Shown piece after piece: positions 1,981-28,893 of a stretch of 36,496 nt of DNA (within the stretch, counting starts at the first letter, position 1; each line of letters starts with the position of its first letter). The translations under genes and the position numbers were made by a program. The notes below the pieces were generated by a model. The model did not search any database and was not told where the DNA came from. It saw only the letters and a program-made list of their open reading frames with translations. This DNA is from Nitrospinota bacterium (GTDB lineage: Bacteria; Nitrospinota_A; UBA7883; JACRLM01): NCBI GenBank assembly GCA_015231995.1, contig JADGAO010000002.1:2500-38995 (forward strand). The letters run 5' to 3'.

Positions 1981-3054
1981 TCAACCCACAGCCGGTTGTT
2001 GTTGCGTCAGACAATGCAATGTCCCCAACCCCCACACCAGGTCAACCGCGTGTATCCCCACAACCTTCCGATCCGGGAACAGCTCCGACAATATCCCAAG
2101 CGCCGTCCGGTCGTTTTCGTCGTTAAACGTTGGAACGATCACGAACGCGTTGGAGATATAAAAGTTCGCGTATGACGCTGGAAGCCTCATCCCGTCGCAA
2201 TAAAGAGGCGATGGCATGGGAAGTTGAACCACGTCAATTCTGGAGCCGTCCTCCAGCCTCGCGTCGTTGAGCCGTTCGATGTTTTCCATCAACGGCGCGT
2301 GGTTGGCGTCGCTTCTGTTTTTCTCCACGCAGGCCACGACGGTGTCTCTGTTCACGAACCGGCAGATGTCGTCCACATGGCCGTGCGTGTCGTCGCCTGC
2401 GATTCCCTTGTTAAGCCATATAACGTTTACCGCGCCGAGCGATTCGCGCAAGGCCGTCTCCACATCGGCTTTCCCAAACCCCGGGTTTCGGACTTGAACC
2501 TTATCGTCTAGCAGGCATTCTTCCGTGGTGATCAACGTTCCTGCCCCGTTCACGTCTATCGCGCCGCCTTCCAGCGTGAAAGGCTTATTACCGATGACTG
2601 CGGGGAGTATCGGGAACTTCAGGCGTTTGGCCAGAATCCCTGCCACTTTGTCGTCGAGTTTCCAGTTGTCGTATTTGGCCCACGCGTTGAACCGGAATTT
2701 GGCTATCGCCCTCTCACCCTTCCCGGTTTTTACGAAAATGGGGCCAAAATCGCGCGTCCAGTTGCGGTCGGTGGGAATGACGAAAAACTCCGTTTTCGTA
2801 ACGTCAACGTGAGCTTTTCGCAACACCGCTTTTGCGTCGGTTTCGGCTTTTTTCGACCCGGCGATGATCCGAACCTTCTCGCCTTCGGATATTTTTCTTA
2901 CCATCTCGGCGAAAACCCACTTGATAGGGGCGAATTTGCCGGGCCAGTCGGCGGAGTTCTGCGGCCAGCATATCCATGTGGCTTCGTGCTTCTCCCATTC
3001 GGCGGGCATTCGCAAACCGGCTCCCGTCGGGCCGTTGGATCGGTTTTTCATCAT
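1981..3054 (-). CDS. aguA: Agmatine deiminase (peptidylarginine deiminase family)
   Basis: RMPAEWEKH, WTRDFGP, FNAWAK, LEGG, DDTHGHVD, ASYANF and C-terminal GTLHCLTQQQP (catalytic Cys); adjacent to aguB. Confidence 0.92.
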   Translation of the reverse strand: MMKNRSNGPTGAGLRMPAEWEKHEATWICWPQNSADWPGKFAPIKWVFAEMVRKISEGEKVRIIAGSKKAETDAKAVLRKAHVDVTKTEFFVIPTDRNWTRDFGPIFVKTGKGERAIAKFRFNAWAKYDNWKLDDKVAGILAKRLKFPILPAVIGNKPFTLEGGAIDVNGAGTLITTEECLLDDKVQVRNPGFGKADVETALRESLGAVNVIWLNKGIAGDDTHGHVDDICRFVNRDTVVACVEKNRSDANHAPLMENIERLNDARLEDGSRIDVVQLPMPSPLYCDGMRLPASYANFYISNAFVIVPTFNDENDRTALGILSELFPDRKVVGIHAVDLVWGLGTLHCLTQQQPAVG

Positions 3055-3062
3055 GCGGATGG

Positions 3063-3956
3063 TTATGGCTTGTCGAGGAATTTTTCGGTCACGCCGTCGT
3101 AGATGTCGGTTCTGCGATCGCGCAGGAAAGGCCAGTTGCGCCGCGTCTCCTCTATCCTCGCAGGGTCTATCTGGGCGATGACAACCCCGTTGTGGTCGCT
3201 GGACGCTTCCGTTATCAACGCCCCAAACGGCCCCGCCACAAAACTCCCACCCCAGAATTCAAGACCCGCCGTTCCCTGCGGCTGTTCGAATCCCACGCGG
3301 TTGACCGCCGCAACATACACACCGTTGGCGATGGCGTGCCCGCGCTGAACCGTGCGCCACGCGTCTTTTTGAGCTTCGCCGAACCTCTCCTTTTCCGAAG
3401 GATGCCAGCCTATCGCAGTGGGATAGAAAATGACAGAGGCTCCGTTCAACGCGGTCAGCCGCGCCGCTTCGGGATACCACTGATCCCAGCAGACCAGAAC
3501 GCCTATCCGCCCGAACGGGGTGTCGAACGCGCGGAATCCGAGATCGCCCGGCGTGAAATAATATTTTTCGTAAAACCCCGGGTCGTCGGGGATGTGCGTC
3601 TTTCTGTATATCCCCGCAAGCCCGTCGGGGTTTATCACCGCCGCTGTGTTGTGATAGAGGCCCGGCGCGCGTTTTTCGAAAAGGGAGGCTATCACCGTTA
3701 CGCCGAGTCTGGCCGCCGATTTCGACAACGCCTTCACCGACGGCCCATCAACAGGCTCCGCCAGGTCGAATAAAGACGAGTCCTCCCGCTGGCAGAAATA
3801 ATGAGTGCGGAACAACTCCGGCAGGCAGATGACGTTCGCGCCCATCGTCGCGGCCTGCTCCACCATCTCTACGGCTTTCGCCAGGCTTTTGTCAGTGTCG
3901 TCCGGCACGGCCATCTGGACGAGGCCGATGTTGAATTTACCCATCGCGCCCATCAC
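3063..3956 (-). CDS. aguB: N-carbamoylputrescine amidase (carbon-nitrogen hydrolase)
   Basis: E-K-C triad motifs: LPELF, YRKTHIPDDPGFYEKYYFTPGD, VCWDQWYPEAAR; also PTAIGW and WPFLRDRR. The start may be 3944. Confidence 0.9.
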   Translation of the reverse strand: MMGAMGKFNIGLVQMAVPDDTDKSLAKAVEMVEQAATMGANVICLPELFRTHYFCQREDSSLFDLAEPVDGPSVKALSKSAARLGVTVIASLFEKRAPGLYHNTAAVINPDGLAGIYRKTHIPDDPGFYEKYYFTPGDLGFRAFDTPFGRIGVLVCWDQWYPEAARLTALNGASVIFYPTAIGWHPSEKERFGEAQKDAWRTVQRGHAIANGVYVAAVNRVGFEQPQGTAGLEFWGGSFVAGPFGALITEASSDHNGVVIAQIDPARIEETRRNWPFLRDRRTDIYDGVTEKFLDKP

Positions 3957-4462: not shown

Positions 4463-4741
4463 TATGCTTTCGCCCTTATTTCCGCATGAAAACAATAAAT
4501 AACTTACCGGCTAACGCATCTTGCGCGCCGGGCTGAAAATACCGCAGTTCGGCCGGTTACGATTTCCCTAAAGGGTCTTTGTCCGCCAGCCGATATGAAT
4601 AATATATTTGACTTCCCAGAAGGATGCAAAGAAACTATGTCTAACTATGATTGGCGCAGGAACCACTCCACCGTGGGCGGGGGGAACGGAGCGCCGGCCC
4701 ATGCCGCCGTAAGACGGTATCCTGAAAGGGCGCGACTGGGG

Positions 4742-5779
4742 ATGTCGGAAGAGTTTAATGTACTGATAACCGCCGCATCGCGCCGTATAGCGCTTATACG
4801 CGGTTTCAAGCGCGCCCTTGCGCAAACCCCCGGCGGCGGCAAGGTTTGGGTTACCGATTACGACAAGTTGGCTCCGGGATTGCGGTTCGCCGACGGCTAT
4901 CACATCGCGCCGCTGTCCAGTTCGGAAGATTATATCCCCACACTTCTGGACGTCTGCAAGAAACGCAAAATAAAACTTATCATCCCTTCGATAGACGAAG
5001 AACTTCCCCTCTTCGGCAGGCATAAAAAAGATTTCATGGATATCGGCGTCATCCCGCTCGTCTCCGACGAGAGGGTCGGCCTGATATGCAACGACAAAAG
5101 CAAGACAGCCTCTTTCTTCACTTCGAACGGTTTTCCTTTCGCAAAGACTTTTCTTCCCGAAGAGGTTGATCCGGATTCCGCCAAATATCCGCTGTTCATA
5201 AAACCCCGGAGCGGCAGAGGCTCCATAGGCGCCCACATGGTCAAAGACGCCAACGAACTCAAATTTTTCAGTTCTTACGTTCCCGAACCTGTGGTGCAGG
5301 AATATCTTGAAGGACGCGAGTACACCATAGACGTCCTGGCCGGACTTGACGGCAGGATACTTTCCATCGTTCCCCGCGAGCGGCTCGTCATCCGCTCCGG
5401 CGTTTCCGATAAGGGAAAAACCCACAGGAGCATGAAGCTCATCGGGCTTTGCAAGGCTATCTGCGAGAGGTTGGGCATTGTGGGGCCGGTGAACATGCAG
5501 TGCAAGGTTCAAAACGGCAGGGCCACCTTCTTCGAGATAAACCCCCGTTTCTCCGGCGCGATACAGCTCACGATAGCGTCGGGCGCGGATTTCTTTTCGA
5601 TGATAATCAACGAGGGAATGGGCCTTCGGCCAAAACCGGCCATCGGGGATTTCAAGGACAATTTCCTGATGTTAAGCTACGAGGACAGCATTTTCGAGCT
5701 TAATGGAGCCGCTATTCCATCCGTCTCGCCACAACTGGTCAGCGGGAAAAAGACCCGCGAGCTGGTAGAGAAGGTATAG
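4742..5779 (+). CDS. ATP-grasp protein, carbamoyl-phosphate-synthase-like (PRK12767-type) family
   Basis: NVLITAASRR, IIPSIDEEL, ICNDK, FIKPRSGRGSIG, QEYLEGREYTID, FEINPRFSG. The ORF is open from 4595 but the recognisable domain starts at ATG 4742. Confidence 0.82.
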   Translation: MSEEFNVLITAASRRIALIRGFKRALAQTPGGGKVWVTDYDKLAPGLRFADGYHIAPLSSSEDYIPTLLDVCKKRKIKLIIPSIDEELPLFGRHKKDFMDIGVIPLVSDERVGLICNDKSKTASFFTSNGFPFAKTFLPEEVDPDSAKYPLFIKPRSGRGSIGAHMVKDANELKFFSSYVPEPVVQEYLEGREYTIDVLAGLDGRILSIVPRERLVIRSGVSDKGKTHRSMKLIGLCKAICERLGIVGPVNMQCKVQNGRATFFEINPRFSGAIQLTIASGADFFSMIINEGMGLRPKPAIGDFKDNFLMLSYEDSIFELNGAAIPSVSPQLVSGKKTRELVEKV

Positions 5780-5799: not shown

Positions 5800-5861
5800 G
5801 TAGGGGCAGACCTATGTGTCTGCCCTCTTTCATGCGGGCGAACACGCAGGTTCGCCCCTAC
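5800..5861. repeat. GTAG-family REP doublet, copy 2 (inverted relative to copy 1)
   Basis: Reverse complement GTAGGGGCGAACCTGCGTGTTCGCCCGCATGAAAGAGGGCAGACACATAGGTCTGCCCCTAC matches 1907-1967. It sits between convergent genes. Confidence 0.9.
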
Positions 5862-8494
5862 AAATCCTCTCTCTCCAAAAGCTCCCGCGCCATCTGGAGC
5901 GCCTCTTCCTTTGAGCCTATCTTCTTGTCCAACTGGGCGGAGAAAATTTCCTTGAGAATATCCCCAACTCTGCGTGACGGCCTTGCGCCCATCGCGAGTA
6001 TGTCCTCGCCCGTCACCAGAGGTTTCACCCCGGCGTATTCGCTTATGTACCGCGTGACCGCGGAGGTCACGCCCCGGTTGCGCGACCTGGCGGCAAGGTA
6101 AAGCAGGGCCACGTCGTCGGCTTGATGGAAAAGCTCCCGCAACGCCGATGGGGGCGGCGCGAACCTTGTCGTTGCCAGGCTTTCCAGCGCGGTCGCCATG
6201 AAATCTCTTCGTTTGATAGCGTCTCTCAAAATTTTCCGCGACGAATGGAACGTCTCCATCATTTCCACAACCTCGACCCCGCTTAGCGGATCGAGGATGA
6301 CCAGCAACCGCGCCGGCCACAACTCCATCGGCTTTAACGGGAAAGCCAGCCCCATCCAGATGAGCATGTCTTCCATGTCGTCCATGAGCCGCTCCTGCTC
6401 CGGGCCGAACGAAAGGTTTGGATGGATGAACCGGAGCAGTCCCAGTTCCTTCATCCTCTTCAACGCGGCGGTGGGCCTGCGTTCGTTGAGTATCGCCTTT
6501 ATCTCGGCGAAAAGCCTGGCCCCGGAAAGCCGGTTGAACATCTCGTGCCGCACGGCGTTTCGCAGAAGCGACAGGGTTTGTTTGGCGATGTTGAACCCAT
6601 GCCTGCTTTCAAACCGCACAGCGCGGAAGACCCTTGTCGGATCCTCCACGAAACTTAAGTTGTGCAGAACGCGGATGATCTTGTCTTTGATGTCGGCCTG
6701 GCCGCCGAAAAAATCGAGCAATGCGTTGGGCCGCGCGCCGTTTAAGCGTATCGCCATCGCGTTTACGGAAAAGTCGCGCCTGTACAGGTCGTTGCGGATG
6801 GCGCTCATCTCCACGATGGGGAGCGCCGCCGGATGGGTGTAGTACTCCATCCTCGCCGTGGCCACGTCTATCTTCAGGCCGCCGGGAGCCACCACAACCG
6901 CCGTCTTGAACTTCTCGTGGATCCTGGCTCTTCCCGAAAGGCGCGACGCCAGCTTTTTCGCGAAATCCATCCCGTCGCCTTCTATGACGATGTCGAGGTC
7001 GAGATTGGGGATGCGAAGGAGCAGGTCTCGCACGAACCCTCCCGCCAGATAAGCCGTGCAACCGCTTTTGTTGGCGATGTCGCTTATCACATGGATCAAC
7101 TTGGTGACATGGGCCGGCAGGCGTTCTCGCAATACGCCGCTTACGTCCCTCAGCGTTGGGCCGGCTTTCGCCATGCCGGGCGACGACAGCTGTTCCCGTG
7201 CAAGGCTTTCGCCGTAAAGCCTGGCCAGCGCCGCGCCCCTGCTCAAAAGCCCTACCAGCGCCCCCGTTTCCTTGTCCACCACCGGAACCTGTTTCTGCCT
7301 CATGCCAAGCATGATCTCCTCGACCACGTTCGACGGCGTGTCGGGATTTACGCAGGCGAACTCGCTTATCATGAACTCGCTGGCGCGATGATCCCCAAGT
7401 CCGTGATGGATAGCCTTCTCCACTATCTGCCTTGTGATAAGCCCCGCCACTTTCATCCCGTCCATCACCGGCAGGCCGTTTATGTCGTACCTGGTCATGA
7501 GAGTCTCCGCATCGGCGACGGACGAATCCGTGGAGACGGTTATCACGCTTTCCACCATCATGTTGGCGGCCACGGTTTCGTCAACGGTGGCGCGGAGCGC
7601 TTCCCATATTTTCTCGCTCGCCTGCGTGAGGGTCATGTCCTTTATGGTGGCCGACGCGGCTGTGGAGTGTCCGCCCCCGCCCATCATGGTGGCGACCGCT
7701 CCCGCGCTGATTTCCCGTATCCTGCTACGCGCCACGAGGTGGATCCTGTCTTCCATTCGAACGAGGATGAAAAGGCTGTCCAGGTTTTCGATGTCCATTA
7801 TTTTGTGAGCCAGCGAAGCCACGTCGCCCATGTGTCGTTCGACTCCGGCCGTCGCCACCGCCACCGTCCGCCCGCAGATGATGCGGGCCTGCAGGCTTTT
7901 GAGCAGGTTATTGAGAGTGTCTATCTGCTCCGCCGAAAGCTCCCTGCGGATATAGCCCGCCACCATATTCATGTCCGCGCCGCTTCTGGACAGCCACGCA
8001 GACGCCTCGTAATCCTCCGGCGTGGTTGACGGAAAACAGAGCGAGCCTGTGTCCTCGTATATCCCAAGCATGAGCAGTGTGGCTTCGGCGGGCGTGACGC
8101 TCAACCCGCGCTCGCGCAAAATTTCCGTCATTATCGTGGAGGTTGACCCACGTTTTCGTATCACCGTTTCGGCGGATGGTATGTCGCAAGAGGCGGCTGG
8201 GTGATGGTCGTAGATCGTGAATTTCACGCCAGGCCTGTCCACGAGCTCCGCCAGCGGGCCGATCCTGCCCCTGCTGGATGCGTCCACCATCACCACTTCG
8301 CTCACCGAGGCGATATCGAAGTTTTTGAGCCTTACGATGGGAAGGGAGATATCTTCGTGGGCGAGAAAGTCGCGCACGTTTTTTTCCTGTGAGCCGGGGA
8401 AAACGGCGGACGAACCCGGATATAGCTTTATCGCCGCCATCATGGAAGCCAGGCAGTCGAAATCAGCGTTGAGATGCGTTGTGATTATTTTCAC
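5858..8494 (-). CDS. cca: DHH-DHHA1-CBS-domain tRNA nucleotidyltransferase (CCA- or A-adding)
   Basis: N-terminal THLNADFD..YDHH..GGGGH (DHH/DHHA1), a CBS pair, then GGFVRDLLL..DLDIV, DLYRRDF, EDPTRVFRAVRF (class II nucleotidyltransferase). GTG 8494 is the likely start (ORF track gives 8545). Confidence 0.9.
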   Translation of the reverse strand: MKIITTHLNADFDCLASMMAAIKLYPGSSAVFPGSQEKNVRDFLAHEDISLPIVRLKNFDIASVSEVVMVDASSRGRIGPLAELVDRPGVKFTIYDHHPAASCDIPSAETVIRKRGSTSTIMTEILRERGLSVTPAEATLLMLGIYEDTGSLCFPSTTPEDYEASAWLSRSGADMNMVAGYIRRELSAEQIDTLNNLLKSLQARIICGRTVAVATAGVERHMGDVASLAHKIMDIENLDSLFILVRMEDRIHLVARSRIREISAGAVATMMGGGGHSTAASATIKDMTLTQASEKIWEALRATVDETVAANMMVESVITVSTDSSVADAETLMTRYDINGLPVMDGMKVAGLITRQIVEKAIHHGLGDHRASEFMISEFACVNPDTPSNVVEEIMLGMRQKQVPVVDKETGALVGLLSRGAALARLYGESLAREQLSSPGMAKAGPTLRDVSGVLRERLPAHVTKLIHVISDIANKSGCTAYLAGGFVRDLLLRIPNLDLDIVIEGDGMDFAKKLASRLSGRARIHEKFKTAVVVAPGGLKIDVATARMEYYTHPAALPIVEMSAIRNDLYRRDFSVNAMAIRLNGARPNALLDFFGGQADIKDKIIRVLHNLSFVEDPTRVFRAVRFESRHGFNIAKQTLSLLRNAVRHEMFNRLSGARLFAEIKAILNERRPTAALKRMKELGLLRFIHPNLSFGPEQERLMDDMEDMLIWMGLAFPLKPMELWPARLLVILDPLSGVEVVEMMETFHSSRKILRDAIKRRDFMATALESLATTRFAPPPSALRELFHQADDVALLYLAARSRNRGVTSAVTRYISEYAGVKPLVTGEDILAMGARPSRRVGDILKEIFSAQLDKKIGSKEEALQMARELLEREDL

Positions 8495-8585
8495 TTTACG
8501 GCCCGTGAATTTATTATCGTTTTCCGCTATTATTTTAACCCGCATACGGGAAGCGGTGGGGAATCAAAAAAACATTTTGCAGGGG

Positions 8586-8610
8586 CGCGTCGCGACGCGC
8601 TTTTTTTTTT
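8586..8610 (+). terminator. GC palindrome plus T10, Rho-independent terminator-like (or a GYAG REP half)
   Basis: Perfect palindrome GCGCGTCGCGACGCGC followed by ten T and preceded by GCAGGG. No + strand gene lies upstream. Confidence 0.4.
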
Positions 8611-8635
8611 GTGTCATCCGGGGGATGTCGTTCTT

Positions 8636-8711
8636 TGTCATCCTGAGGGAGACCCTGGCGACCGAAGGATCAAAGTATAAAAAATATTTTTTTGATAGAT
8701 TTTTCACTTCG
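8636..8711. repeat. TGTCAT-ended REP/MITE-like element, copy 2 (truncated)
   Basis: TGTCATCCTGAGGGAGACCCTGGCGACCGAAG..CAAAGTA..TTTTTTTGATAGATTTTTCACTTCG aligns with the reverse complement of 1234-1320. Confidence 0.75.
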
Positions 8712-8801
8712 TGGGGTCTTTTAAAATTCACTGTAAAAACCCTTATTCCCACATTCCATACCACACCGAGAACTTTTCTATTCTGTTTTAAAATATTTTA
8801 T

Positions 8802-8829
8802 TTGAAAAAATTATTTTTTGAGTTACTAT
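8802..8829 (+). promoter_or_regulatory. Candidate sigma70 promoter of the kamA cluster
   Basis: TTGAAA-N16-TACTAT in a very AT-rich stretch about 190 bp upstream of the likely start. Confidence 0.4.
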
Positions 8830-9017
8830 TATCGCAACACGGAGTCGTGAAAAGACTCTGGGGTAACGTAAGCTACTAAATTTTATTGGCTAACGAGTTT
8901 TTTGGCTGATCTTTGGACGAGTGTGAGCAGATGAGCGGGGGTCGCGCGGAGCGCAGGGTTGCCACTCCGTTTTTGGAAGCGTGCTCCCAGAAACACATCA
9001 GGACTATGGAGATGAAA

Positions 9018-10409
9018 ATGGAGATGGACCGTTGCCATGCGGATCATGAAGCTGAATCGTTCAGCGAAGATATCGAACCCCCAAGTACGTGTGGCGGAGC
9101 CGACGCGCAGGTAAACGCTCGCGGATCGGACTCATCCGCCAATATTCCGCAATCCTTTGCAACTTCTTCGGCCAGGTCGCCGAGGCCGGCCTCTTCTTCC
9201 CGCGCAAGCCTGCGCCCCGTATCAATTAACACCAGCGCAAACTCCCGTTCGTTCCGGGAACGTTTCTACCCGGCCGCAACCACGGAAGATTGGAACGACT
9301 GGCGCTGGCAGTTGCGAAACAGGATCACCTCGATAAGAGAGCTTGAGCAAATCGTCGCGCTTACGGACAACGAACGCGAAGCGATGATAATGGGCGGCGG
9401 CTCTCTCCCTGTCGGTATAACTCCATATTACGCAAGCCTGCTGGACGGCAACGACCCGTCCCAGCCGCTCCGCAGGACTGTCATCCCCGCTCCCGGCGAA
9501 TACCTGCGCGGTTTTGGCGAGTCGGACGATCCGCTCGGCGAAGACGGTCACAGCCCCGTCCCGGGCGTCGTTCACAGATATCCTGACAGGGTTTTGTTTC
9601 TTGTCACCGGGTTTTGCTCCACATACTGCAGGTACTGCACGCGCTCGCGCATGGTTGGAGGAGGCGACGAACAGAGGTTCGACGAGTCCGTCTGGAAGGG
9701 CGCGATAGAATATATAAAATCCAACACCGCAATACGCGACGTGCTTCTTTCCGGCGGCGACCCTCTCACGCTCCCGGACGAGAAACTTCACTGGATACTC
9801 TCCAGGCTACGCAAGATACCGCATGTGGAGTTCATAAGGATCGGCACGAAGGTTCCCGCCGTCCTGCCGCAGAGGGTAACTCCGGCGCTCACCTCCATGC
9901 TCAAAAAACATCATCCGCTCTGGATGAGCATCCATTTCATACATCCGTCCGAGATGACCGAGGAGACCGCGCAGGCCTGCGGGCGCCTTGCAGACGCGGG
10001 GATACCGCTGGGGAGCCAGACTGTCCTTCTCAAAGGCGTCAACGACGACGTGGAGACGATGAAAAACCTTTTCCACAACCTGCTCAAAGCCCGCGTGCGG
10101 CCATACTATCTGTACCAGTGCGACCCGATATCCGGCTCGACCCATTTCCGCACGCCTGTGGAGAAGGGGCTTGAGATAATGCAGGGCTTGAGGGGCCACA
10201 CCACCGGTTACGCCCTGCCTGCCTACGTCATTGACGCGCCGGGCGGCGGCGGTAAAATACCCCTGCTACCCGAATACGCTGTCGGCAGGAAAGGCGATTA
10301 CATCATCCTTCGAAATTACGAAGGGCAGGAATATCTTTATCCCGACCCTGTCGCAGGCAAGATGACGGACGCGCCGTCAGTCGTTCCCGTCATCGCCGGC
10401 AGGAGGTGA
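9018..10409 (+). CDS. kamA: KamA-family radical SAM lysine 2,3-aminomutase
   Basis: WNDWRWQL, DPLGED, HRYPDRVL, CSTYCRYCTR (CxxxCxxC), SGGDPL, YQCD and VIDAPGGGGKIP (PLP Lys). The start is among ATGs 9006-9024; GGAG lies 6 nt before 9018. Confidence 0.9.
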   Translation: MEMDRCHADHEAESFSEDIEPPSTCGGADAQVNARGSDSSANIPQSFATSSARSPRPASSSRASLRPVSINTSANSRSFRERFYPAATTEDWNDWRWQLRNRITSIRELEQIVALTDNEREAMIMGGGSLPVGITPYYASLLDGNDPSQPLRRTVIPAPGEYLRGFGESDDPLGEDGHSPVPGVVHRYPDRVLFLVTGFCSTYCRYCTRSRMVGGGDEQRFDESVWKGAIEYIKSNTAIRDVLLSGGDPLTLPDEKLHWILSRLRKIPHVEFIRIGTKVPAVLPQRVTPALTSMLKKHHPLWMSIHFIHPSEMTEETAQACGRLADAGIPLGSQTVLLKGVNDDVETMKNLFHNLLKARVRPYYLYQCDPISGSTHFRTPVEKGLEIMQGLRGHTTGYALPAYVIDAPGGGGKIPLLPEYAVGRKGDYIILRNYEGQEYLYPDPVAGKMTDAPSVVPVIAGRR

Positions 10410-10412
10410 ACC

Positions 10413-11417
10413 ATGAGAGTTGGGCTTACATACGACCTTCGCAAAGATTACGAAGGCGAAGGGCTTGACGAGGAGCAGTTGGCCGAGTTCGACAGCCCGG
10501 AGACGATTGACGCGCTGGAGAACGCCATCCGCCGGATGGGACATGAGACCGACAGGATAGGCAATTCCGCGCGGCTCATCTCTCGCCTTTCCGGCGGCGA
10601 TTGCTGGGACATGGTCTTCAACATCGCCGAGGGGCTTTACGGCTATTCGCGCGAGGCTCTGATACCGGCCCTTCTGGAGTCGCGTGGAATTCCCTGCGCG
10701 TTTTCCGACCCGATGGCGTTGAGCCTGGCTCTTCACAAAGGAATGTCCAAACGAATCGTGCGCGACCTGGGCCTGCCCACTCCGGACTTCGCCATCGTGG
10801 AGTCTGTCGAGGATGTTCGTAACATAGACCTTCCGTATCCTCTGTTCGCAAAACCGGTCGCCGAAGGGACAAGCAAAGGCGTCACCGCCGCTTCGAAGAT
10901 CGAGACAAAGGCCGGGCTTGAGAAAGTCTGCGCCGAACTGCTGGAGCGCTTCCGGCAACCCGTGATAGTGGAGACATACCTGCCCGGCAGAGAGTTCACC
11001 GTCGGGATACTCGGCACGGGACGCAAAGCCACAGCCGTGGCCGCGCTGGAGATAAATCTCAACGATAACGCGGAAAAAGAGATATACACCTTCGTCAACA
11101 AAGAAGAGTGCGAAGAGCGGGTGACGTACACCTTGGCGGGCGACCCGCTGGCGATAGGCGCGAAGAACCTGGCGCTGGCCGTGTGGCGCGGGATGGGCTT
11201 GCGCGACGCTGGCAGGGTGGACGTGCGCGTGGACGCATACGGAGTCCCCAACTTCGTCGAAGTCAACCCACTGCCGGGGCTTCATCCGTTCCACTCCGAC
11301 CTGCCGATAATGTGCACCCATGTGGGCAAGACCTACCAGGAGCTTATCGAAACCATCATGACGTCCGCCCTGGAGCGGACGGGGGCTAGAAGTTTGCGTC
11401 CCGCTTTAGCCGTCTGA
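10413..11417 (+). CDS. D-Ala-D-Ala-ligase-like ATP-grasp amide ligase 1 (non-canonical)
   Basis: FNIAEG, LHKGMSK, AKPVAEGTSKG, GREFTVG, GRVD and EVNPLPGL. Lacks the Ddl N-terminal GGxSxE motif. Strong AGGAGG RBS. Confidence 0.85.
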   Translation: MRVGLTYDLRKDYEGEGLDEEQLAEFDSPETIDALENAIRRMGHETDRIGNSARLISRLSGGDCWDMVFNIAEGLYGYSREALIPALLESRGIPCAFSDPMALSLALHKGMSKRIVRDLGLPTPDFAIVESVEDVRNIDLPYPLFAKPVAEGTSKGVTAASKIETKAGLEKVCAELLERFRQPVIVETYLPGREFTVGILGTGRKATAVAALEINLNDNAEKEIYTFVNKEECEERVTYTLAGDPLAIGAKNLALAVWRGMGLRDAGRVDVRVDAYGVPNFVEVNPLPGLHPFHSDLPIMCTHVGKTYQELIETIMTSALERTGARSLRPALAV

Positions 11418-11426
11418 CCTGGCCGC

Positions 11427-12446
11427 ATGAAAGCCGTCATCCTTCACTCCGAGGTTTCGCAGGAAGCGTCGCCGGATGACTTGGACACCCTTGATCAGGT
11501 GGAAGGCGTGGCGCGCGCCCTCAAGGAGCTTGGCCACGAGACGGTTAACGTCACGTTCTCGCTGAACCTGAAGAATTTGTCCGCAGAACTTGGCAGGATA
11601 GCGCCGGATGTCGCCATCAACCTTGTGGAGACAGTCGGCGGCGCAGGGAGGCTCATCCATCTGGCCCCGTCGTTATTGGAACATCTTTCCATCCCATACA
11701 CCGGTTGCCCTGCGGAGGCGATTTTCGTCACATCGGGTAAAACGCTTGCGAAAAAGACGCTCGCTGGCGCGGGATTGCCGACCCCGATGTGGATATCGTC
11801 CGGCGAAGGCGCGGATGGACAAGATTTTTCGCCGGGCCGGTTCATTGTCAAATCGGCATGGGAACATGCGTCGCTCGGGCTTGACGAGCATTCCGTCATC
11901 CACGCCCAAACATCCGGCCAACTGCTGGAAGTGTTGCGGGCGAAGGAGAGCGTTGACGGCTCGGAGTGGTTTGCGGAGCGGTTTGTGGAAGGGCGGGAGT
12001 TTAACGTGCCAATCCTCGCCGACGGGGAGGGGCCGAGGATATTACCGGTGTCGGAAATAGTTTTTGACGCTTATCCTGAGGGGAAAGTAAGGGTCGTAGG
12101 CTACAGAGCCAAATGGGAGGCGGAATCCTTCGAATACAACAACACCCCCCGCAGGTTCGACTTCCCGGAGAGCGACCACGCTCTGATAAAACAGATGGAG
12201 ATGCTTGCGCTCAACTGTTGGAGCGTTTTCGGGCTGGCTGGGTATGCCAGAGCCGATTTCCGCGTGGACGAAAACGGGAAACCGTGGGTACTGGAGATCA
12301 ACGCCAACCCATGCATAGCCCCGGACGCTGGGTTCGAGGCCTCTGCAAGACGCGCCGGGCTATCGTACACCGACATCGTAGGCTCGCTCGTCGAAGACGC
12401 CATGGCGCGTCGTGGGCGGCGATCGGGGACATCCGTCCGTGCGTAG
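11427..12446 (+). CDS. D-Ala-D-Ala-ligase-like ATP-grasp amide ligase 2 (non-canonical)
   Basis: INLVE, IPYTG, VKSAWEHASLG, GREFNV, YRAKW, YARADFRVD and LEINANPC. Confidence 0.85.
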   Translation: MKAVILHSEVSQEASPDDLDTLDQVEGVARALKELGHETVNVTFSLNLKNLSAELGRIAPDVAINLVETVGGAGRLIHLAPSLLEHLSIPYTGCPAEAIFVTSGKTLAKKTLAGAGLPTPMWISSGEGADGQDFSPGRFIVKSAWEHASLGLDEHSVIHAQTSGQLLEVLRAKESVDGSEWFAERFVEGREFNVPILADGEGPRILPVSEIVFDAYPEGKVRVVGYRAKWEAESFEYNNTPRRFDFPESDHALIKQMEMLALNCWSVFGLAGYARADFRVDENGKPWVLEINANPCIAPDAGFEASARRAGLSYTDIVGSLVEDAMARRGRRSGTSVRA

Positions 12447-12498
12447 CGATGTGGCGTGTTTCTCACCTTCGTCTCTTGCGGGAGAGGTAAACTCCCAA

Positions 12499-12588
12499 GC
12501 CCCCCTGATAAGGGGGGTGGCGCGAAGCGCCGGGGGGTTGAGAAAACCCCCGTTCGCTATCGCTCACAGCCCCCTTGTCAGGGGGCCT
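12499..12588. repeat. Multi-hairpin CCCC/GGGG palindromic element, copy A
   Basis: The reverse complement GGCCCCCTGACAAGGGGGC..GGGGG..AACCCC..GGCGC..GCGCCACC..CCCCTT aligns with 28800-28893 and 20154-20250. Confidence 0.85.
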
Positions 12589-12622
12589 AAGAACGCAGGG
12601 TGATGGGGGTTATATAGCTGAC

Positions 12623-13120
12623 GTGACAAAACCCTCCATCCTCCTCTTCCGCTACGTTCCATCGGACATGGACATCATCGCCATCCGCGATATCGTCGCC
12701 TCCACCGGTTTTTTCAACGAGGAAGAGATAGATATCGCCGTGGAGCTTGTCGAGGAGCGGCTCGCGCGTGGCGAGAAGAGCGGCTACTATTTCGTTTTCG
12801 CCCAGACGCCTGATGGCCGCGTCGCTGGCTACGCTTGTTATGGTCCTATATCCGGGACGAAAAGCAGTTTCGACCTCTACTGGATAGCCGTCCACAACGA
12901 CGAGCGCGGCAAGGGATTAGGCCCCGCCATCATGGAAAAGGCGGAGAAGGCGATGGCCGATATGGGCGCAGTACAGGTCTACGCCGAAACGTCATCACGT
13001 GCGCAATACAAACCCACCCGTTCGTTTTACGAAAAACAGGGTTACGTCCAGACCGCGTTGATGGAGGATTTTTACGACGAAGGCGACGGGAAAGTGGTTT
13101 ATGTGAAGAAACTACGGTAG
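12623..13120 (+). CDS. GNAT family N-acetyltransferase
   Basis: FDLYWIAVH..RGKGLG (acetyl-CoA motif A), ETSSRAQYKPTRSFYEKQGY, DFYDEGDGK. GTG 12623 is preferred because the ORF-track start at 12575 lies in the repeat. Confidence 0.88.
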   Translation: MTKPSILLFRYVPSDMDIIAIRDIVASTGFFNEEEIDIAVELVEERLARGEKSGYYFVFAQTPDGRVAGYACYGPISGTKSSFDLYWIAVHNDERGKGLGPAIMEKAEKAMADMGAVQVYAETSSRAQYKPTRSFYEKQGYVQTALMEDFYDEGDGKVVYVKKLR

Positions 13121-13156
13121 ATACAGTTTCAATCCCCCCGATAGGGAATTCCATTC

Positions 13157-13241
13157 TGCGACATTAATGTCGCACAAGCCAGCCCGCTGTCTTGAAAAAT
13201 CTCTTAAAATTCAATGTCTTAATAATGGTCTAACTCCTGCA
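13157..13241 (+). promoter_or_regulatory. Candidate sigma54 promoter with palindromic UAS for nifU-suf
   Basis: Perfect 18-bp palindrome TGCGACATTAATGTCGCA (13157-13174), IHF-like ATTCAATGTCTTA (1 mismatch), and TGG-N10-GC (TGGTCTAACTCCTGCA, 13226-13241). Confidence 0.55.
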
Positions 13242-13283
13242 ATACCATTCCTTGAGTACTAACTAACTCGAAGTGAGTCAATC

Positions 13284-14045
13284 ATGGAAACCTCAGTTCA
13301 AGAAGCGCCACACCGCTTTTCGGAGCGGTTCACCTCTGCGGGAATGAACCCCAAAAACAGGGGCGCCTATTTCGGGGACGAGGCGGCGGCCAATGGCCTT
13401 GTGCTGGTAGAGGCAAAAAGTAGAGACATAAAGCTTTACTGGCTTATCGAGCCGGAGACGGAACTCATTCATGCCTCGAAGTTTTTCTCATACGGCGGGA
13501 CGGAGTCCAACGCCATCGCCGACAAGCTTTGCGACCTGGTCAAGGGCCAATCGCTCGCCTGCGCTCTGGAGCTTACCGGCGAAGACGTGGAGCGGATGTT
13601 GCGGGACACGCCAGTGATCTCCGCCGTGCCGGAGGTGAGACGGGAAGCGTTCATCGTGGTGGACGAGCTCTTGAACGCCGTCACGGAAGAGTGGCCCAGG
13701 GCATACGTCCGCGCCAAAGCCGCCGGAATAATCAAAGAGTATGGCAAAGGCAAAAAAAGAGCGCCGGGCTTTGACCTTGCGGAACAGGACGCGAAGTGGC
13801 TGAGCCTTCCCAGGGACGAGCAGATAAAGAAAGTGGAGGCCACCCTCGACGGCCCGATACGGGACTATCTGCAAAGCGAAGGCGGCGACATGATCGTGCG
13901 CGACGTGGAGGATGGCAGGCGGGTGATCGTCGAATACGTCGGCGCGTGCGGATCGTGCGCCTCTTCCACGGGGATGACCCTGGCGTTCATCGAGGACAGC
14001 CTGCGCTCGGACCTGTACGAGGGGCTTTCGGTGATTCCGTATTGA
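13284..14045 (+). CDS. NifU-like protein: degenerate IscU-like N-domain plus NifU-C/Nfu domain
   Basis: C-terminal IRDYLQSEGGD..YVGACGSCASS..TL (Nfu CxxC). The N-terminal 'NPKNRG..LYWLI..KFFSYG..A..LCDLVKG' is IscU-like. Confidence 0.8.
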   Translation: METSVQEAPHRFSERFTSAGMNPKNRGAYFGDEAAANGLVLVEAKSRDIKLYWLIEPETELIHASKFFSYGGTESNAIADKLCDLVKGQSLACALELTGEDVERMLRDTPVISAVPEVRREAFIVVDELLNAVTEEWPRAYVRAKAAGIIKEYGKGKKRAPGFDLAEQDAKWLSLPRDEQIKKVEATLDGPIRDYLQSEGGDMIVRDVEDGRRVIVEYVGACGSCASSTGMTLAFIEDSLRSDLYEGLSVIPY

Positions 14046-28785: not shown

Positions 28786-28799
28786 GCTTGGGCGCTCCC

Positions 28800-28893
28800 A
28801 GGCCCCCTGACAAGGGGGCGGCGAACGATAGTGAGCGGGGGGTTCCTAACCCCTCCGGCGCGAAGACGCGCCACCTCCCCTTGTCAGTGGAGC
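28800..28893. repeat. Multi-hairpin CCCC/GGGG palindromic element, copy B
   Basis: AGGCCCCCTGACAAGGGGGC..CCCCTCCGGCGCG..CGCGCCACCTCCCCTTGTCA; inverted homolog of 12499-12588. Confidence 0.85.

Follow-up and report, generated by a model that had tools for sequence, protein, structure and literature searches.

A gene cassette of a lysine-type aminomutase, two ATP-grasp ligases and an acetyltransferase, found in a Nitrospinota bacterium and in other phyla, probably encodes a pathway to acetylated beta-lysine amides or peptides

We report that a four-gene cassette in a Nitrospinota bacterium (assembly GCA_015231995.1, contig JADGAO010000002.1, positions 2,500 to 38,995; this stretch of 36,496 nucleotides is here referred to as the window) probably represents a self-contained and horizontally spread pathway that would convert lysine into an N-acetylated beta-lysine amide or peptide through two ligations, independently of nonribosomal peptide synthetases (NRPS) and with a polyamine-like handling of the acetyl group. 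The genes encode an aminomutase of the KamA family, two ATP-grasp ligases with the fold of D-alanine--D-alanine ligase (Ddl), which we name Lig1 and Lig2, and a small N-acetyltransferase of the GNAT family. An earlier interpretation of the window, made from the letters alone (the sequence-only reading), had suggested an NRPS-independent route to an acetylated beta-lysine peptide or amide; this is supported as far as sequence analysis goes, with the osmolyte, envelope and toxin roles it had named remaining as alternatives. Comparison with other genomes provides a wider scope than that reading had, in that the cassette is present in many phyla, occurs as natural fusions, includes an optional deacetylase, separates into two sub-modules and has an orphan crystal structure among its relatives.

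The four open reading frames (ORFs) are located on the + strand between 8913 and 13120 (8913..10409, 10413..11417, 11427..12446 and 12575..13120), with gaps of 3 nt between KamA and Lig1, 9 nt between Lig1 and Lig2 and 128-176 nt between Lig2 and the GNAT gene, in keeping with the co-directional arrangement and the two shortest gaps that had been read from the letters. Specifically, the KamA frame is open from a TTG at 8913 and has in-frame ATGs at 9006, 9012 and 9018, one of which is the likely start, such that the gene spans approximately 9006..10409. Lig1 (10413..11417, 334 aa) and Lig2 (11427..12446, 339 aa) follow directly, while the GNAT gene (ending at 13120) starts either at the TTG at 12575, which falls inside a repeat (see below), or at the GTG at 12623, the latter giving a protein of 165 aa.

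KamA, a radical-SAM and pyridoxal 5'-phosphate (PLP) aminomutase, matches the Pfam families LAM_C and Radical_SAM, and its top NCBIfam model is that of lysine 2,3-aminomutase AblA (TIGR03820; 486.5 bits), the equivalog cut-off of which (525.4) is not reached, since the match covers model positions 2-362 of 417 and leaves out the C-terminal part. The scores on the glutamate 2,3-aminomutase (432.2), arginine 2,3-aminomutase (407.2) and EpmB (248.6, cut-off 369.3) models are lower, and the protein passes the KamA subfamily cut-off (342.9 vs 199.2). It aligns with the Clostridium lysine 2,3-aminomutase structure (PDB 2A5H) at 470 bits, and counting residue equivalences along this pairwise alignment we find that Cys125, Cys129 and Cys132 (CxxxCxxC), Arg134, Asp293 (YQCD), and Asp330 and Lys337 (VIDAPGGGGK) of 2A5H are all kept, which bears out the motifs that had been picked out by eye. 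Asp293 and Asp330 bind the epsilon-ammonium group of lysine and are replaced in glutamate 2,3-aminomutase, and Lys337 is the PLP-binding lysine. Among cassette KamAs of other genomes, the three cysteines and Asp293 are kept in 75/75, and Asp330 and Lys337 in 74/75. Because KamA keeps the lysine-type residues, beta-lysine is its likely product. The N-terminus (approximately 80 residues) is of low complexity and without homology, and this is the sole KamA-family gene detected in the genome.

The two ligases both match the Pfam family Dala_Dala_lig_C (Lig1 with 88.9 bits) and yet, by their residues, are predicted to be catalytically intact enzymes other than Ddl, as the sequence-only reading had considered probable. 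On the Ddl models TIGR01205 and NF002378 (cut-offs 245.65 and 243) Lig1 scores 112.0 and 136.2 bits and Lig2 83.4 and 108.3 bits, i.e., below the cut-offs, both score far under all Van models, and a canonical Ddl (293.7 bits, above cut-off) is encoded on another contig of the genome. When aligned with four canonical Ddl proteins from the same class, both retain the catalytic Lys, R-x-D and E-x-N, residues that are invariant in the alignments of both families; since these ATP and Mg residues are retained, amide-bond formation via an acyl-phosphate is to be expected. The GGxSxE motif and the omega-loop Lys-Tyr, both with established roles in Ddl, are changed: in place of GGxSxE, Lig1 has TYDLRxDY...AEFD plus an 8-residue insert and Lig2 another acidic stretch, and NKY in the omega-loop has become NKE in Lig1 and RAKW in Lig2. 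Retained ATP-grasp residues, a missing GGxSxE and altered omega-loops had all been noted from the letters, and this alignment agrees on each of them. Moreover, the equivalent of DdlB Ser281 is present in Lig1 (HSDLP) but missing from Lig2 (PDAGF), and the N-terminal substrate domain of both ligases is remodelled relative to Ddl.

AlphaFold2 models of the ligases are confident (mean predicted local distance difference test, pLDDT, of 85.8 for Lig1 and 90.7 for Lig2), and Foldseek pairs them best with Ddl structures, at template-modelling (TM) scores of approximately 0.73-0.75. Lig1 and Lig2 are paralogues with 25% identity and a colinear alignment (hhalign probability 99.9), of which Lig2 is the faster evolving. 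A quick maximum-likelihood search with 95 rows, where the Ddl rows were taken from the class of the window only, placed Ddl (22 rows), Lig1 (23 rows) and Lig2 (50 rows) in three separate clades with SH-aLRT (approximate likelihood ratio test) support of 99, 100 and 99, respectively, and neither ligase grouped with true Ddl. Within the Lig2 clade there are two sub-clades, one of 14 rows and the other of 36. Among the ESM Atlas clusters outside PF07478, Lig1 matched generic ATP-grasp/RimK clusters (<0.9) and unnamed clusters only. A predicted complex of Lig1 and Lig2 (score 0.01, mark 0.32) counts neither for nor against binding.

The GNAT protein is a generic small member of its family according to Pfam (Acetyltransf_1, _7 and _10), and its top NCBIfam match is RimI, below cut-off (39.8 vs 86.4). 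AblB (TIGR03827) is absent among its matches at E <= 0.001, no AblB match was found genome-wide (the genome is 86% complete), and the protein is approximately 100 residues shorter than the AblB model. Over residues 9-160 it aligns at 133.6 bits with PDB 2R7H, an orphan crystal structure whose deposited title is 'Putative D-alanine N-acetyltransferase of GNAT family', and this score makes the two clear orthologues. In the open-literature passages that mention 2R7H, it is cited solely as a structural neighbour. The next characterised PDB relatives are acetyltransferases of the phosphinothricin / methionine-sulfoximine type, with ~30 bits only.

To survey the gene neighbourhood we used a pattern scan with one genome per species, which gave at least 601 stretches, of which 578 were confirmed; the counts of synteny and phyla refer to the best-scoring 80 of these 578. 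KamA is located directly 5' of Lig1 in 73/77 loci with at least 1.4 kb of upstream DNA, Lig2 directly 3' of Lig1 in 64/67 loci with at least 1.2 kb of downstream DNA, and the GNAT gene is present in 46/56 loci where the DNA extends 2.6 kb or more past Lig2 (adjacent in 38 and after an insert of ~1.8 kb in 8). The gene order, on the conservation of which the sequence-only reading had made its proposal depend, is thus conserved, while none of the other genes in the window recurs at these loci. By NCBI labels at least 11 named phyla are represented: Thermodesulfobacteriota (27 loci), Planctomycetota (14), Pseudomonadota (9), Spirochaetota (5), Myxococcota (5), Bacteroidota (3), and Acidobacteriota, Moduliflexota, Sumerlaeota, Ignavibacteriota and Fidelibacterota (1 each), with 12 loci lacking a phylum label. 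One of the loci (L067) belongs to a cultured organism, Virgifigura deserti.

Lig1 is highly conserved and the constant partner of KamA. Its identity across phyla is 54-61% in 79/80 of the kept loci, the exception being a Flavobacteriaceae locus (L054) with 47%. In the larger set, 7979/8000 scored candidates match Lig1 at E <= 1e-10, and the best 120 are 58-100% identical; the names given to these 120 are nearly always 'D-alanine--D-alanine ligase' or a variant thereof, with one 'ATP-grasp domain-containing protein'. In the class to which the window belongs, a Lig1 orthologue is present in 3/23 genomes (2/22 of the high-quality genomes), and the rows nearest to the Lig1 of the window in the tree come from other phyla. 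For these two reasons we consider the cassette to be an accessory and mobile trait, and its patchy occurrence fits that of an accessory metabolic trait. A clean insertion site is not shown by the cassette-less genome of the same family (G001), the flank of which is not colinear on the KamA side. Titles of the records that carry the cassette refer to marine, freshwater, peat, groundwater and digester samples.

The cassette also occurs in parts. Two loci (L053 and L077) have KamA and Lig1 only, and in another genome of the same family as ours (G002) KamA-Lig1, with unrelated flanks, and Lig2-GNAT reside on separate contigs (L119 and L120). Existence of two sub-modules, KamA-Lig1 and Lig2-GNAT, suggests therefore that Lig1 is the ligase tied to the supply of beta-lysine. 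Four genomes lack a KamA next to Lig1, and three of these encode a cassette-type KamA elsewhere (60-66% identity), one of them with an internal stop.

Some observations on single loci can be added. At L066, on a Bacteroidota chromosome (genome G026), the GNAT match is in two pieces and the distant KamA has an internal TAA, and this copy of the cassette seems to be decaying. The Lig2-GNAT pair of G002 is located a few kb 3' of a sufS homologue, echoing the suf neighbourhood of the window. A Ddl-like domain is also present in frames of ~720-760 aa in G011 (C24:106965-107849) and similarly in G013, G016, G020 and G021; these proteins score 165-172 bits on TIGR01205, under its cut-off, and occur in genomes with or without the cassette.

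Fusions link the components further. Among 29 longer relatives of Lig2, 27 are single Lig1-Lig2 polypeptides of 660-716 aa with the catalytic residues retained in both halves, one is a Lig2-GNAT fusion and one has an unmatched N-terminus. Of the longer GNAT relatives, the best 120 of 317 (E <= 1e-15) comprise 76 in which the GNAT is preceded by a GNAT-like domain and a deacetylase, 42 Lig2-GNAT fusions and 2 others. The corresponding free-standing protein is encoded by the ~1.8 kb insert and consists of 580-600 aa, with a weakly matched GNAT-like domain at the N-terminus and a Hist_deacetyl domain that matches strongly (~255 bits), and the closest solved relatives of the latter are acetylpolyamine amidohydrolases (APAH; 244 bits to 9GKZ and 237 bits to 6PHR). 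These fusions would bind all of the components into one process, in the observed gene order. Since many organisms encode a single Lig1-Lig2 polypeptide with intact active sites, Lig1 and Lig2 are probably one working unit, and the sequence-only suggestion that the two ligases act together gains support. The combination of GNAT and APAH-like deacetylase points to an aliphatic primary amine that would be reversibly acetylated. As to the genome studied here, a stand-alone histone deacetylase-type gene (HDAC, on contig C333) was considered as the missing deacetylase and rejected, being 38% identical to the cassette type and located beside an unrelated radical-SAM gene, presumably RimO/MiaB-like.

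Other genes accompany the cassette in subsets of loci. A sigma-54 activator is encoded 5' of the cassette in ~18 loci, the window not among them, and sigma-54-type promoter-like sites were found 5' of KamA in 12/18 loci with the activator, 6/56 without it and 6/74 of the opposite-strand controls. A small protein (~100 aa, with a conserved core of ~90 residues and no Pfam family) is encoded directly 5' of KamA, between the sigma-54 activator and KamA, in eight loci (L009, L011, L048, L058, L060, L061, L084 and L087); in the ESM Atlas it matches only unnamed Thermodesulfobacteriota clusters of 51-110 members. A Cys-rich protein of ~175 aa is encoded between KamA and Lig1 in L015, L018, L032, L033, L042 and L075, mostly Planctomycetota, and of the two that were checked one has a sub-threshold match to PF03692 with the CxxCxxCC pattern (21.9 bits vs 23) and the other is without a Pfam match. 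Genes for PhoU_div (DUF47) and a PHO4 phosphate transporter are present 3' of the cassette in L036, L040, L044, L049 and L058, which are Thermodesulfobacteriota/delta-proteobacterial, three of them labelled Syntrophus or Syntrophaceae, and this linkage may reflect common ancestry rather than function.

On this basis we propose the following pathway. KamA would convert L-lysine to beta-lysine, a step that we regard as well supported. Lig1, which with few exceptions has KamA beside it or elsewhere in its genome, would form a first amide bond with beta-lysine as a participant, in an ATP-driven reaction with acyl-phosphate chemistry like that of Ddl, Lig2 would add a second amide bond to the product of Lig1, and the GNAT would acetylate a free amine, be it in the end product or in an intermediate. 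In the many relatives that have the APAH-like deacetylase, adjacent or fused to the GNAT, the acetyl group would be taken off again, and acetylation and deacetylation may constitute a polyamine-style cycle or serve as a transient protecting group. For the end product we consider most likely a metabolite with a physiological role in the cytoplasm, which could be a polyamine analogue of peptidic nature, a compatible solute or a reserve rich in nitrogen. Tentatively, and as a plausible version that we would place somewhat short of probable, the product could be a beta-lysine-based peptidic polyamine, made without NRPS by two ATP-grasp ligations to amino or diamino partners, having its own acetylation/deacetylation homeostasis and spread by gene transfer through at least 11 phyla, mainly among uncultured anaerobes.

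Several points weigh against the proposed pathway. The KamA score lies under the AblA equivalog cut-off (486.5 vs 525.4). We infer both the order of the steps and the partners that are joined to beta-lysine, and the cassette has no universal link to a transporter, carrier or regulator that could hint at its role. The synteny counts derive from mechanical ORF and tblastn calls with the proteins of the window at the best 80 of 578 loci. The mixed habitats of the samples disfavour a purely salt-driven osmolyte, which is a weak point, and the co-variation of Lig2 and GNAT in two subtypes could reflect shared history and not shared specificity.

Among the other explanations, the cassette might modify a macromolecule, by beta-lysylation or peptide tailing of a protein (elongation factor P, EF-P, or a ribosomal protein) or of an envelope precursor, in a manner resembling RimK, RimI, EpmA and EpmB. 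In favour of this, EF-P of this genome carries a KPGKGGA loop with Lys at the tip, there is no EpmA/GenX above cut-off in the genome (best 50.6 vs 286.9), Lig1 is unusually conserved across phyla, the best NCBIfam match of the GNAT is RimI, albeit below cut-off, and the family-less protein of ~100 aa precedes KamA in 8 loci. The window itself contains neither efp nor epmA, as had been stated, EF-P being encoded on another contig. However, EF-P-type targets are universal whereas the cassette is present in 3/23 genomes of the class, KamA scores as the AblA/LAM type and not as EpmB, the ligases are Ddl-like and not RimK-like, no candidate target gene is conserved across loci, and the linked deacetylase is nearest to small-molecule acetylpolyamine amidohydrolases. 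Because the deacetylase resembles small-molecule enzymes and the distribution is patchy, we favour a free metabolite over protein modification, and consider the latter unlikely. A secreted antimetabolite or cationic antibiotic, for example a beta-lysine oligoamide like the streptothricin tail, with the GNAT for self-protection and the deacetylase for activation, would account for a patchy distribution that resembles horizontal transfer and for the distant likeness (~30 bits) of the GNAT to phosphinothricin / methionine-sulfoximine-type acetyltransferases. ATP-grasp ligases paired with a GNAT are known from tabtoxin-type pathways, and acetylation followed by deacetylation is a known pro-drug logic. 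It is nevertheless improbable, given that the loci share no conserved exporter or immunity gene and that conservation across phyla is very high with a constant minimal gene set, unlike the variable clusters for antibiotics; to a lesser degree, sigma-54 activator control in a subset is more typical of physiology than of warfare.

Two further explanations assign less to the ligases. If these were unrelated neighbours, such as spare cell-wall ligases, what is left is plain synthesis of N-acetyl-beta-lysine by a lysine 2,3-aminomutase and an acetyltransferase, the textbook AblA/AblB pair, which passages of PMC3543383 give as annotated in bacterial genomes. Against this, the GNAT is without an AblB match and ~100 residues shorter than the model, the ligases are not Ddl, they are located between KamA and GNAT in 64/67 loci and are elsewhere fused together and to the GNAT, and KamA-Lig1 exists without the GNAT; we consider it very improbable. 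Degradation of lysine through beta-lysine appears more remote still: KamA does initiate clostridial lysine fermentation and Bacillus kamA reportedly sits in a sigma-54-controlled operon for lysine utilisation, but two ATP-consuming amide ligases are out of place in a degradative route, and no gene for a beta-lysine 5,6-aminomutase, a dehydrogenase or a thiolase-type enzyme is conserved beside the cassette (no genome-wide search for lysine-fermentation genes was made).

The proposed pathway to an acetylated beta-lysine amide or peptide can be compared with known systems, relative to which the cassette is a new pathway variant assembled from known enzyme families. It shares with AblA/AblB, which makes N-epsilon-acetyl-beta-lysine within methanogens and some bacteria, a lysine 2,3-aminomutase of the same type and an acetyl-CoA-dependent GNAT, but its GNAT is smaller and of another family, two conserved ligases are intercalated and an APAH-like deacetylase is often present. 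With Ddl and VanA the ligases share the three-domain ATP-grasp fold and the ATP/Mg residues, while they differ in having no GGxSxE, in having Lys-Glu (Lig1) or Lys-Trp (Lig2) instead of the omega-loop Lys-Tyr, and in forming separate clades. In pyrrolysine synthesis a radical-SAM lysine mutase (PylB) makes an isomeric diamino acid, to which a Ddl-like ATP-grasp ligase (PylC) then joins an amine, and the cassette follows the same mutase-then-ligase logic; PylB, however, is of another radical-SAM family than KamA, and the cassette has no PylD but a second ligase and a GNAT. The PylC model is absent among the NCBIfam matches (the best 25 of 37 for Lig1 and all 23 for Lig2).

The osmolyte N-acetylglutaminylglutamine amide (NAGGN) is an N-acetylated dipeptide-type solute, in the synthesis of which Ngg is a fusion of a GNAT and an ATP-grasp enzyme. 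The cassette likewise combines a GNAT with a fusable ATP-grasp ligase, and we set its Lig2-GNAT fusions beside Ngg by description; NAGGN differs in its glutamine precursor, the lack of an aminomutase and a single ligase domain, compared to beta-lysine, an aminomutase and two ligases in the cassette. Finally, the polyamine system of a SpeG-type GNAT and APAH also pairs a GNAT with an APAH-like zinc deacetylase, but the cassette deacetylase has its own N-terminal GNAT-like domain and keeps company with genes for beta-lysine and for the ligases, not with those for spermidine or putrescine. The window is without this deacetylase, and the genome has an unrelated stand-alone HDAC only.

Like the sequence-only reading, which knew of no characterised product for these genes, we found no description of the gene set (aminomutase, ATP-grasp/Ddl-like ligases and GNAT) in the full text of approximately 8.1 million open PMC papers and 0.36 million preprints, subscription journals being outside the scope of the search. 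Passages of PMC9337991 and PMC4942678 contain no description of it, and negamycin is the subject of one paper in which beta-lysine and ATP-grasp co-occur and of a further preprint.

In the gap between Lig2 and the GNAT gene, outside the pathway, there is an imperfect long palindrome (~12500..12585, no strand assigned). It folds into a hairpin at -98.3 kcal/mol (z -7.08), so that the palindromic repeat seen by the sequence-only reading is present; any significance specific to the operon does not hold, as it belongs to a dispersed repeat for which the genome has 45 matches. The repeat is ~95 nt, G+C-rich and similar to repetitive extragenic palindromes or miniature inverted-repeat transposable elements (REP/MITE-like), with full-length and half copies on many contigs; a second copy is present inside the window at ~28792-28893. 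Its presence explains why the Lig2-GNAT gap is wider here than in most other loci (<150 bp), and its RNA structure may still act as such. An Rfam scan of 8400-13400 gave no family at threshold and no riboswitch 5' of the cassette, and two chance-level matches of miRNA models on the palindrome, far under their gathering scores.

Upstream of KamA, an AT-rich stretch between divergent genes (8546..9005, + strand; GC 0.49 in the 8001-9000 bin) is a candidate promoter region. It includes hexamers similar to those of sigma-70 promoters (TTGAAA-16-TACTAT at 8802-8829), a match to the consensus only. A consensus scan gave no sigma-54-type site 5' of KamA in the window, where the matches were fewer than in shuffles. 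The sequencing runs listed for this DNA were DNA metagenomes, with shares of 0.32 or less, and no RNA run was among them.

The divergent neighbour 5' of KamA (5858-8545, - strand) is a tRNA-nucleotidyltransferase-like gene according to its Pfam and NCBIfam matches. Its product of 895 aa combines a poly(A)-polymerase head domain with DHH/DHHA1 and two CBS domains, and matches the model of the A-adding tRNA nucleotidyltransferase end to end (840 bits vs a cut-off of 1440). Genes at 1981-3054 (-), 3063-3956 (-) and 4595-5779 (+) include an agmatine deiminase (PAD_porph) near a CN_hydrolase, a pairing that we take to suggest a putrescine route of the N-carbamoylputrescine-amidase type, and, nearby, a third ligase of the ATP-grasp type, the N-terminal domain of which is PylC-like. 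This third ATP-grasp gene adjoins the tRNA-nucleotidyltransferase-like gene also in a related cassette-less genome and was not found in other cassette loci; a tie between it, or the putrescine-type genes, and the beta-lysine pathway is possible but unsupported. On the 3' side the cassette is followed by a NifU-like gene, a gene with an AHSA1 domain and the suf operon.

The public names 'D-alanine--D-alanine ligase' and 'D-alanine N-acetyltransferase' mislabel a conserved pathway that is seen in 578 or more stretches of genomes and, by the thousands, among metagenomic proteins. The cassette is small and its enzyme types are, as a general expectation, normally cytoplasmic, and so it should be amenable to heterologous expression. 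Identity of the product would show what two large ATP-grasp families and the orphan structure 2R7H do, and would mend the annotation as a 'second Ddl' in Thermodesulfobacteriota, Planctomycetota, Spirochaetota and other phyla. Moreover, it would add a use of beta-lysine beyond N-acetyl-beta-lysine, the modification of EF-P and NRPS antibiotics.

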